A stretch of 64,000 nucleotides of DNA, from sequence record PQ765507. One strand, 5' to 3'. The notes beneath the pieces are model-generated. The model did not search any database. It was not told the origin of the DNA and saw nothing but the letters and a program-made list of their open reading frames with translations. Shown piece by piece: positions 37,713 through 40,295 of the stretch. Origin of the DNA: Escherichia phage 212. The translations under genes were made by a program, and so were the position numbers. Positions within the stretch are counted from its first letter, which is position 1. The number at the start of each line of letters is the position of its first letter.

Positions 37713-37741
37713 AAAAGGGCCGCAAGGCCCTTATTCTTTTT
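37713..37741. terminator. bidirectional terminator between rnlB and the gp24 paralog
   Basis: GGGCCGCAAGGCCC hairpin flanked by A and T runs. Confidence 0.65.
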
Positions 37742-39014
37742 CCAGTGGTGGAAGTTTAACACCAAGATAAGAACTCAATTGGCTTTGGTTAGCCATCTTA
37801 TCCATATCAGCACCATCAATAATGCGAGCTTCTTTATCATCTTTCGCAACCGTATAAGGGTTCGCTGTCAATGCATAACGAGCTAATAGCGCAACAGTAG
37901 GCTGCAAGCTTTCAGGGTCAACAATAACCTTGAATTCCCCGACCGAGGTATCACCCTCATCATCAACTTCGCTAAGACCTTCCGTATAAGGCGCATAATA
38001 CAAAGATGCGACCGTCTGACCTTCACCCATATCAGCATTTACACCGACAATAACATAATCACATGGACTATTCATATCTGCATAAAGCGGCAAACCGTTC
38101 TTCAGAACGCCATAGGCTAATTCATCCTGGTCTTCCTTTTTCTCAACCCAACCAGAAGCTGCTAAAATAGCTGCACAACGGGAAGAAGCGACTGCATATG
38201 TGCCAGCAAACGAAGTCTGACGTTGAACTGCAGAGTTCATTTCACACATATAATAATACAGGGTTCGCGCACGGTCCTGAGCATTATCATATTTCGGGTC
38301 AGTTAGATTCAATACACCTTTTTCAGAAACACCTTGCACCTTGAAGCGAGAACTGACAGTAATAAGGGATTGCAGTACATCCTTATTAATTTCCTCTGCC
38401 ATTTGAATGCCGAGAATATTATCGATGAAGTCTGTTGCATCGAAACCGTTTGCTTCCAGGTCTTGAGCAAGCTCAACAGTTAAAGAAGTTTTCAGCTTTC
38501 TGGATTTAACTTCAGTCTGCCATTTATCAATACGAAAACCAGCTTCAGCAATTTCGGGATGACCTTTTTCAAATTTATCAGTAAAAGCTGCATCTGACAT
38601 CATTCTTATATGGCCAGCCGCAATGGCTTCAGAAATAACTTCGCTCAAATCAGTTTCGAGAGTCCCGGAGAATGGTGATGCTTCCAAAACTTTGAACACA
38701 ACACTTTCAAACTGGAACATATCACCGACTGCATAATCTTCGTCTTTGTTCGTAAATTCTGGGATATTCTTACGCTCGAACATACCAATCTGACCTGCAA
38801 ATGTTGCTCCGCCAAGATAAGTCATTTTATCATCTGGGTTCAGAACACGAACACCATACAACGCAGCAACAGGCTGGGTAGTTTTCTGTTCAGCCACGAG
38901 CGCTTTAAAAATTCGTTTATTCGTAGCCTGGGTATAAGAAAGCAAATTAGGACGGGCGACCTGGTTGGCCGCCGTTAATGTTGATTCGTGAATTAGTGCG
39001 TTAATCTTTTGCAT
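37731..39014 (-). CDS. capsid vertex protein gp24 paralog (divergent second copy)
   Basis: 427 aa; roughly half identical by eye to the adjacent gp24 and less similar to remembered T4 gp24; starts immediately after the gp24 stop. Confidence 0.8.
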   Translation of the reverse strand: MQKINALIHESTLTAANQVARPNLLSYTQATNKRIFKALVAEQKTTQPVAALYGVRVLNPDDKMTYLGGATFAGQIGMFERKNIPEFTNKDEDYAVGDMFQFESVVFKVLEASPFSGTLETDLSEVISEAIAAGHIRMMSDAAFTDKFEKGHPEIAEAGFRIDKWQTEVKSRKLKTSLTVELAQDLEANGFDATDFIDNILGIQMAEEINKDVLQSLITVSSRFKVQGVSEKGVLNLTDPKYDNAQDRARTLYYYMCEMNSAVQRQTSFAGTYAVASSRCAAILAASGWVEKKEDQDELAYGVLKNGLPLYADMNSPCDYVIVGVNADMGEGQTVASLYYAPYTEGLSEVDDEGDTSVGEFKVIVDPESLQPTVALLARYALTANPYTVAKDDKEARIIDGADMDKMANQSQLSSYLGVKLPPLEKE

Positions 39015-40295
39015 TTACGCCTCATAAATGATTGGCGGAAGTTTAACACCGAGCAGATAAGACATATTGCTCTGACCGGCCATTAAATCCATATTGGTTG
39101 CATCGATAATGCGAGCTTCTTTATCGTCTTTAGCAACAGTGTACGGGTTAGCTGAAAGTGCATAACGAACCATCAAAGAGATAGCTGGTTGCAAACTATC
39201 GGGGTCCACAATGACCTTAAACGCGCCTACATGCTCTTCATCATCTAAGTCCAGGCCTTCGGTATAAGGAGCATAGAAGATTGAGCCTACGACTTCGTTT
39301 CCGCCGTAATTTTCTTTAACGCCAACGGTTACATAATCTAATGGACTGTTAACATCACAGAATACAGGGAGGCCATTAATCAAATAACCGTACGCTGTTT
39401 CAGGAAGCCATTGTTCATCTTCTGGTTTATGTTTCAGCCAGCCAGAGCCAGCCAACATAGCAGCAACACGGCTAGAGGCAACAACAAAGGTACCGGAATA
39501 AGATGTAGTTTTCTGAATCTCGGAGTTCATTTCACAAACCAGTTCGTACAGTTTACGTGCGCCTTCTGGAGCTGCATCATATGTTAAATCGATGACGCCA
39601 TTGTCAGAAACACCAGTTACTTTATAACGCTTGGAAACGGTAATAAGAGACTGAAGAACATCTTTGTTAATTTCATCTGCCATAATAGTGGCAAGCAAGT
39701 CTTCCAGGAAAGCAGGAGCATTAAACCCATTTGCTTCCATATCCTGAGCAAGCTCAACAGTTAATGCAGTTTTCAATTTACGTGTTTTAACCGGAGCATT
39801 CCATTTGTTGACCTGGAATACAGCATTGCTAATTTCAACATCACCGGCCTCAAATTTCTCGGTGTGTGCAGCATCAGGAACCAGGCGAATAGTTAATGCA
39901 ACAAGACCTTCTTGCAGAACATCGGATAATACAGTTTCGGTAGTCGATGCAAACGGGTTATCAACCAGAGCTTTATAAACGGTATTCTGAAATTTAATGT
40001 ATCCGCCTTTAGCTACGGCCTGAGTTGGAGTTGTAAATTCCGGAATTGTTTCACGGTCTTTTGAACCAACTTCACCACCGTAAACGGCACCAGTCTGGAA
40101 ACTGAATTCATTATCAGGAGTAAGATATTTAACACCATACAGCGCCGCAACTGGCTGGCTTGTACGTTGTTCAGCGATAATATCGCGGTAAATCAATTTG
40201 GTTGTAGCGCGGGTCAAAGCAACAAGATTCGGGCGGCCCAAGGAGTTGCTGGTAGTGGTAGTTGACTCGCGCAGTAATTTGTTAATCTTTGCCAT
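39015..40295 (-). CDS. 24: capsid vertex protein
   Basis: 426 aa; high identity to remembered T4 gp24 (MAKINxLLRESTTT.SNSxGRPNLVALTRATTKLIY...); late promoter upstream. Confidence 0.85.
   Translation of the reverse strand: MAKINKLLRESTTTTSNSLGRPNLVALTRATTKLIYRDIIAEQRTSQPVAALYGVKYLTPDNEFSFQTGAVYGGEVGSKDRETIPEFTTPTQAVAKGGYIKFQNTVYKALVDNPFASTTETVLSDVLQEGLVALTIRLVPDAAHTEKFEAGDVEISNAVFQVNKWNAPVKTRKLKTALTVELAQDMEANGFNAPAFLEDLLATIMADEINKDVLQSLITVSKRYKVTGVSDNGVIDLTYDAAPEGARKLYELVCEMNSEIQKTTSYSGTFVVASSRVAAMLAGSGWLKHKPEDEQWLPETAYGYLINGLPVFCDVNSPLDYVTVGVKENYGGNEVVGSIFYAPYTEGLDLDDEEHVGAFKVIVDPDSLQPAISLMVRYALSANPYTVAKDDKEARIIDATNMDLMAGQSNMSYLLGVKLPPIIYEA

Follow-up and report, generated by a model that had tools for sequence, protein, structure and literature searches.

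Two adjacent gp24-type capsid vertex genes in Escherichia phage 212 and its T4-like relatives

The vertices of the phage T4 head are made of gp24, a pentameric protein (PDB 1YUE, 5VF3 and 7VS5) present in 55 copies per head and encoded by a single gene, gene 24. In several relatives of T4, two such genes are named in GenBank, as 24 and 24b in JS98 (EF469154), 24(1) and 24(2) in VR7 (HM563683), capsid vertex protein I and II in VR20, VR25, VR26 and CJ20, and head vertex protein I and II in Salmonella phage CGG4-1. A pair of this kind was analysed here in Escherichia phage 212, on a stretch of 64,000 nucleotides from sequence record PQ765507, hereafter called the window. The window belongs to a Gaprivervirus-like T4 relative and is 97-98% identical to phages P896 and PSD2001; in the gp24 region, DNA identity is 98% with PSD2001 and 90-97% with TH41, P896, VR20, VR7 and SP18, all of which are Gaprivervirus. 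At the annotation level the gene pair is already known, and the window is another member of the group. As for what the pair does, we lean, with moderate confidence, towards a two-gene late operon whose products would both be specialised vertex subunits with a divided role.

The two genes and their family

The minus-strand interval 37731-40295 consists of exactly two open reading frames (ORFs), which abut each other in the ORF listing, as the original prediction had described. These two genes and the neighbour with which they were compared are as follows:

39015..40295, minus strand: gene 24(1), 426 aa, transcriptionally upstream; gp24 capsid vertex protein, ortholog of T4 gene 24
37731..39014, minus strand: gene 24(2), also 24b, 427 aa, transcriptionally downstream; divergent paralog of gp24
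40729..42288, minus strand: gp23-like ORF, neighbour of the pair (ORF list, Pfam and BLASTP)

Over their full length, the proteins gp24(1) and gp24(2) share 56% identity and 75% positives (BLASTP, E 2e-174), a similarity far above chance, whereas each of them is merely 28-29% identical to the gp23-like ORF. Both match PF07068 (Gp23 superfamily) in Pfam, with E 1e-96 and 325 bits for gp24(1) and E 3e-97 and 327 bits for gp24(2) against a cutoff of 24.4, and both match PHROG 138 (E 1e-130 and 2e-123, respectively). The T4 gp24 structure 1YUE is aligned end to end, over residues 1-424, by gp24(1) (E 1.6e-193) as well as by gp24(2) (E 6.7e-148), while the gp23 chains in the PDB are matched far more weakly, at E ~1e-12 only. 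The pairwise comparison that had been suggested, of the two proteins with each other, with T4 gp24 and with gp23, thus places both on the gp24 side: profile match, end-to-end homology to 1YUE with its insertion-domain region included, and greater closeness to gp24 than to gp23 are found in each copy.

Identity to T4 gp24 is 69% for gp24(1) and 56% for gp24(2). The upstream copy is therefore the closer of the two, although the description of it as very close to T4 gp24 was overstated. The conserved blocks that had been quoted were found in both copies with small variations, namely KW..VK[ST]RKLKT, LTVELAQD[LM]EANGF and NPYTVAKDDKEARIID. Among the PDB matches of the two proteins, no solved structure from any two-gp24 phage was present. 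An AlphaFold2 model of gp24(2), made from a two-row alignment of window sequences, reached a mean pLDDT (predicted local distance difference test) of 33 and a pTM (predicted template modelling score) of 0.30 and was not used; the fold assignment is safe without it, because of the 56% full-length identity to 1YUE. In the head-gene cluster the order is 20-67-68-21-22-23-orf-24(1)-24(2), both gp24 genes lying downstream of gene 23.

As a whole, a tblastn search with gp24(1) located gp24 at 1,541 places in 1,418 phage records, which implies about 120 two-copy records. Genes of the 24(2) type (66-99% identity) were found in Gaprivervirus, Dhakavirus, Gelderlandvirus, Marfavirus, Roskildevirus and in Enterobacter and Kosakonia phages, while a single gp24 is carried by T4, Mosigvirus, Karamvirus, Tegunavirus, Jiaodavirus and more distant groups. 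The comparison of gene 24 copy number among T4-like genomes therefore gives a two-copy state common to several genera and a single-copy T4 group. The tandem duplication put forward in the original prediction stands as far as two intact gp24 paralogs are concerned; the pair is old, occurs in about 120 records from several genera and is not specific to this genome.

Constraint on the two copies and their origin

Twenty-one two-copy loci, drawn from GenBank representatives and IMG/VR contigs, were compared, and all of their 42 ORFs are intact. Between the window and VR7, the ratio of nonsynonymous to synonymous substitution rates (dN/dS) is 0.057 for gene 24(1) and 0.033 for gene 24(2); between the window and IME540, the values are 0.068 and 0.053, respectively. 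Such ratios indicate strong purifying selection on both copies, and the two genes are clearly functional. Within genomes, synonymous divergence (dS) between the copies is saturated, at 1.7-3.5 in five genomes, and a recent duplication or gene conversion was rejected on this ground, saturation being found in 5/5. Over 210 genome pairs, the protein distances of the two copies correlate with r = 0.87 and a slope of 0.89, gp24(2) evolving slightly slower than gp24(1).

Fixed differences were sought between 11 sequences of the 24(1) type, the T4 group included, and eight of the 24(2) type. Thirteen were found, of which seven fall in residues 25-57, and at 10 of the 13 the 24(1)-type residue is the outgroup majority, which makes gp24(2) the derived copy. 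Three of the gp24(2) changes, L34R, Y57V and E335Q, affect positions at which the 23 other gp24s sampled show no variation. In gp24(2), short insertions also lengthen the loops around T4 residues 240 and 350, and four residues are missing around residue 297 by comparison with gp24(1) and the T4 group; residues 348-359 of gp24 form a flexible loop (PMC9546572; PMC9958956). The insertion-domain region is better conserved in gp24(2), with 57% identity between the window and F48 vs. 33% for gp24(1). The divergence ascribed beforehand to the downstream copy is thus borne out, and it is that of an evidently functional gene, with dN/dS of 0.03-0.06 and radical substitutions fixed at otherwise invariant positions.

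The relationships of the copies were studied by neighbour-joining trees of 22 gp24 sequences with 300 bootstraps and of 31 sequences with 200 bootstraps. The 24(2) clade is monophyletic with 100% bootstrap and spans at least five genera; its topology is FBB1(F48(CF-SP2(IME540(VR7, window)))), which the 24(1) tree mirrors. The gp24(1) of Dhakavirus, Gaprivervirus, Gelderlandvirus and Marfavirus falls together with the one gp24 that T4, Mosigvirus and Karamvirus possess (93-95% bootstrap), and with the gp24(1) of FBB1 added, the assemblage of gp24(1) and the T4 group is found at 94-98%. A longer loop, HKPEDxxYLxxxAYG, is common only to gp24(1) and the T4 group, a rare change that agrees with the tree. 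Conversely, a lineage-specific duplication, with the two copies as sisters to the exclusion of T4, was rejected: it appeared in 0/200 bootstraps, with the whole protein and with each half.

Grouping with T4 gp24 to the exclusion of the other copy is therefore observed for gp24(1) and not for gp24(2), a pattern that identifies gene 24(2) as a paralog, and not an ortholog, of T4 gene 24. From the tree grouping and the shared loop it follows that the duplication is older than the divergence between the T4 group and the two-copy genera. On the most parsimonious reading, the T4 group most probably lost gene 24(2), and the single copy of T4 would be a secondary loss. The framing that T4 has one copy and that a second was gained in this phage is, since T4 gp24 falls inside the 24(1) clade, probably backwards. 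Gene 24(2) would then have arisen by duplication before T4, Mosigvirus and Karamvirus separated from the JS98, VR7, S16 and F48 lineages, would have changed fast at few positions, mainly in the N-terminal arm, and would since have been conserved as tightly as gene 24(1), which would have retained the ancestral sequence states as the ortholog of T4 gene 24.

Three points weigh against this history and make loss, in preference to lateral cassette spread, an inference that falls short of proof: the trees are neighbour-joining distance trees only, the 24(2) clade is placed with weak support (39% bootstrap) with respect to Jiaodavirus and Tegunavirus, and a gp23 tree, taken as a proxy for the species tree, leaves the genera unresolved (internal nodes at 16-69% bootstrap). 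The best-surviving alternative is a lateral acquisition of gene 24(2) from a different T4-like lineage, followed by spread of the two-gene cassette among genera through recombination, T4 never having had the second gene. T4-like genomes are mosaic, which speaks for such an origin, as do the poorly supported deep position of the 24(2) clade and the interspersion of two-copy and single-copy genera in the unresolved gp23 tree; moreover, gp24(2) is 61-65% identical to Jiaodavirus gp24, a value comparable to its 54-58% with the neighbouring gp24(1). However, none of the sampled single-copy lineages contains gp24(2) within it, the two copies yield matching topologies in which FBB1 is basal, their distances are correlated, and all 21 loci agree in position, order and tight coupling. 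In addition, the gp24(1) of FBB1 branches outside the T4 group plus the gp24(1) of the Dhakavirus group (94-98%), so that a transfer of the cassette would predate the T4 split anyway. Lateral capture is accordingly held to be a serious but rather doubtful alternative to duplication followed by loss in the T4 group.

Expression signals and surroundings of the pair

The signals recognised around the two genes are the following:

40322..40329, minus strand: T4-type late promoter motif TATAAATA, 34 nt upstream of the ATG of gene 24(1)
40301..40308, minus strand: Shine-Dalgarno-like AAGGAAAG before the start codon of gene 24(1), read from sequence; an AAGGA ribosome-binding site precedes this gene
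39020..39023, minus strand: GAGG Shine-Dalgarno for gene 24(2), inside the 3' end of gene 24(1), read from sequence
37715..37732, both strands: bidirectional intrinsic-terminator hairpin AAGGGCC-TTGC-GGCCCTT with a T-run, 7-bp stem and tetraloop, overlapping the stop codon of gene 24(2)
40693..40714, both strands: terminator hairpin downstream of gene 23, 9-bp stem and tetraloop, separating the gene 23 transcript from 24(1)-24(2)

In the window, the motif TATAAATA was found 20 times vs. 4.1 expected from shuffles, with 16/20 copies on the minus strand; this excess and this bias are consistent with a late (virion structural) region transcribed leftward. No copy lies inside 37731-40295. The same layout is general, since all 21 two-copy loci have a single TATAAATA 33-36 nt upstream of gene 24(1) and none internally. 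An internal promoter for gene 24(2) was consequently rejected: the motif is absent from both ORFs throughout the 21 loci, and sigma-70-like matches number 5 vs. 8.4 in shuffles.

At the junction, the stop codon TAA of gene 24(1) (39015-39017) is directly followed by the ATG of gene 24(2) (39012-39014), in the arrangement GAGGCG-TAA-ATG, which is that of predicted translational coupling. In 18/21 loci, the two genes are separated by 0, -1 or -4 nt; in the remaining three (L027-L029), an in-frame ATG further upstream was chosen by the ORF caller, and a spacing of about +1 nt follows from the tblastn coordinates. A 24(1)-type gene stands directly upstream, on the same strand, of every 24(2)-type gene (21/21), and no genome with gene 24(2) and without gene 24(1) was found among these loci. 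Concerning the two hairpins, both are perfect, G+C-rich and score as terminators on both strands; the one at 37715-37732 is predicted to end the two-gene late transcript and also that of the convergent rnlB. Promoter, coupling and flanking terminators therefore delimit a discrete two-gene late operon. The codon adaptation index (CAI) relative to gp23 is 0.47 for gene 24(1) and 0.43 for gene 24(2), and a marked difference in expression between the copies was not retained as a candidate, there being no clear difference in CAI.

Between gene 23 and gene 24(1), a 93-aa ORF of unassigned function (40403-40684, plus strand; PHROG 6003) lies antisense; it is conserved in JS98 (ORF173c), VR7 (ORF190c), PSD2001 and IME540. 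Just upstream of it, at 40337-40365 on the plus strand, lies the region's highest-scoring sigma-70-like promoter match (10/12), which overlaps the late-promoter region of gene 24(1) on the opposite strand. The spacer between genes 23 and 24 also holds an inserted reverse-strand gene in three single-copy phages, annotated as a homing endonuclease in Acinetobacter phage Konradin and Escherichia phage mobillu and as a 504-aa hypothetical protein in Yersinia phage fHe-Yen9-01, and appears to be an insertion hotspot.

Further along the window, a Hoc-like head decoration ORF of 282 aa (35145-35993, plus strand) is matched by Hoc PHROGs mainly at residues 98-278, its C-terminal part. The product of the gene at this position is 377 aa long in PSD2001 and 367 aa in VR7, where a second Hoc-like ORF and a collagen-repeat ORF are also present. 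The Hoc region thus looks variable among genomes that are otherwise 97-98% identical.

Role of the two copies and comparison with known systems

In the favoured account, both genes would be expressed from one late mRNA, by way of the TATAAATA promoter before gene 24(1), the TAA-ATG coupling and the terminator after gene 24(2); both proteins would enter the prohead, be cleaved after Glu10 by the gp21 protease and form pentameric vertex capsomers. T4 gp24 loses exactly 10 residues (PMC9546572), and its structure 5VF3 begins at residue 11. The N-termini of the window proteins read MAKINKLLRE|ST for gp24(1) and MQKINALIHE|ST for gp24(2), with the gp21 cleavage motif and Glu10 retained; at the sequence level, the motif (L/I)-x-E|S-T at residues 8-12 is kept in all copies, including all gp24(2) orthologs. 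At the three sites at which bypass-24 changes occur in gp23 (N381, A387 and K420), gp24(1), gp24(2) and all other gp24s carry R, A and G, while all gp23s carry N, A and K. Given the conservation of both copies, their predicted co-expression and these retained motifs, incorporation into the virion, cleavage and pentamer formation would be expected of both proteins.

Both alternatives offered in the original prediction, two kinds of vertex or a neofunctionalised capsid protein, are reasonable. The vertex role could be divided in either of two ways, by separate homopentamers at non-equivalent vertices (one apical and two rings of five) or by mixed pentamers. In the T4 head, gp24 occupies 11 vertices, which fall into three non-equivalent classes, and the C5 asymmetric unit contains 11 independent gp24* chains (PMC9546572); this makes a division by vertex class plausible. 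Mixed pentamers would fit the conserved capsomer-core residues and the putative translational coupling just as well. A more specific proposal, which we put forward only tentatively, is that the paralogs build distinct vertices in one prolate capsid, gp24(2) occupying one class of the 1+5+5 set and gp24(1) the rest, or that they form obligate mixed pentamers, the single-gp24 head of T4 being secondarily simplified. If true, vertex identity would be genetically encoded, and the T4 head would derive from an ancestor with two vertex proteins. The residues L34R, Y57V and E335Q provide ready-made markers for mass spectrometry and for assignment in cryo-electron microscopy (cryo-EM) maps.

Several points weigh against a divided vertex role. 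The T4 group manages with one copy, so that gene 24(2) is not universally required. The presence of gp24(2) in the virion, its cleavage, its pentameric state and the choice between a vertex class and mixed pentamers are inferred from sequence. Lastly, in the open-access full text searched, two-gp24 phages were not the subject of any proteomic, genetic or cryo-EM study, and the searches, outside which the JS98 and VR7 genome papers fall, gave no paper on the function, virion presence or essentiality of the second gp24; the virion proteome found in the literature is that of a single-copy Jiaodavirus (PMC13119998), and the transposon-sequencing (Tn-seq) preprint found there concerns an unrelated jumbo phage.

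An unlikely, although not far-fetched, rival role for gp24(2) is that of a gp24 derivative that is no longer a vertex capsomer, acting either in assembly only, as a trigger of gp21 activation or a prohead-only component, or as a decoy or modifier for capsid-sensing immunity. The radical substitutions at otherwise invariant positions and the loop insertions peculiar to gp24(2) around T4 residues 240 and 350 could be read in this sense. Attachment of gp24 is reported to trigger protease activation (PMC9958956), and the triggering of type IV Thoeris depends on T6 gp24, in which the change A380V is reported to give escape (PMC13243611), so that the vertex protein is a target of immune sensing. Against this, gp24(2) keeps the whole gp24 architecture from end to end vs. 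1YUE, the Glu10 cleavage motif and gp24-type residues at the capsomer-core positions, and its predicted co-transcription and translational coupling with gene 24(1) are more typical of partners in one structure. As for immunity in particular, gp24(2) is no obvious escape variant: its interpretation as a Thoeris-escape allele is unsupported, both copies keeping Ala at T4/T6 position 380.

This position, which corresponds to residue 379 of gp24(1) and 381 of gp24(2), lies in an invariant RYAL motif and is Ala in all Tevenvirinae gp24s sampled; in more distant relatives, its equivalent is Gly or Ser.

Even less probable is redundancy, in which the second copy would serve for dosage or as a back-up and either protein could build all the vertices. 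All family hallmarks are indeed kept in both copies, the T4 group works with one, and in T4, gp23 point mutants can replace gp24 (PMC9546572). Yet the copies are only 56% identical with saturated dS, both are intact in 21/21 genomes over a protein divergence of up to about 30% with dN/dS of 0.03-0.07 each, and copy-specific substitutions are fixed at otherwise invariant sites. Redundant copies are normally lost or decay, and redundancy fits such long-term retention and fixed differences poorly. An assembly artefact, or a pseudogene in one of the two places, can be dismissed for practical purposes, since the copies differ at 44% of their residues, the same arrangement recurs in about 120 independently sequenced genomes and in IMG/VR contigs, and neither frameshifts nor stop codons occur in any of the 42 ORFs.

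As a sequence feature, the pair is ordinary for its phage group and already present in GenBank annotation. It points to the question of why widespread T4-like genera keep two coupled and constrained vertex proteins, and where in the head each of them is located; to this, the present analysis adds a polarity, the single gene 24 of T4 being probably a derived loss, and a short list of diagnostic gp24(2) residues, among them those at positions 34, 57, 244, 335 and 415. Since gp24 affects capsid stability at low pH (PMC10580926) and takes part in Thoeris sensing, the presence of a second vertex paralog might bear on how robust therapeutic phages are, or on the evasion of defences, a relevance that is speculative.

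Compared with the annotated pairs of related phages, the window shows no difference of substance, and the database entries for those pairs name the genes only. Pairs of the VR7, JS98 and VR20 type share with it the order gene 23, small antisense ORF, 24(1), 24(2) and convergent rnlB; the VR7 proteins are 94% (gp24(1)) and 98% (gp24(2)) identical to those of the window, and the DNA of the window is 90-98% identical to that of the annotated pairs. With T4, the locus has in common a late promoter and a location downstream of gene 23, and T4 gp24 and the two window proteins share an HK97-like fold, an insertion-domain region and a 10-residue propeptide ending in Glu, the propeptide being predicted for gp24(1) and gp24(2). 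The difference is that T4 has one gene and the window lineage two, gp24(2) forming a paralog clade of its own, set apart by 13 fixed differences and three indels in loops. Finally, the pair resembles the older gp23-to-gp24 duplication, in that a capsid-shell gene duplicates in tandem and its downstream copy specialises (PMC9958956; PMC10580926). While gp23 and gp24 are about 20-29% identical and form hexamers and pentamers, respectively, gp24(1) and gp24(2) have 56% identity, and at the sites that control pentamer formation the residues of both are of the gp24 type.

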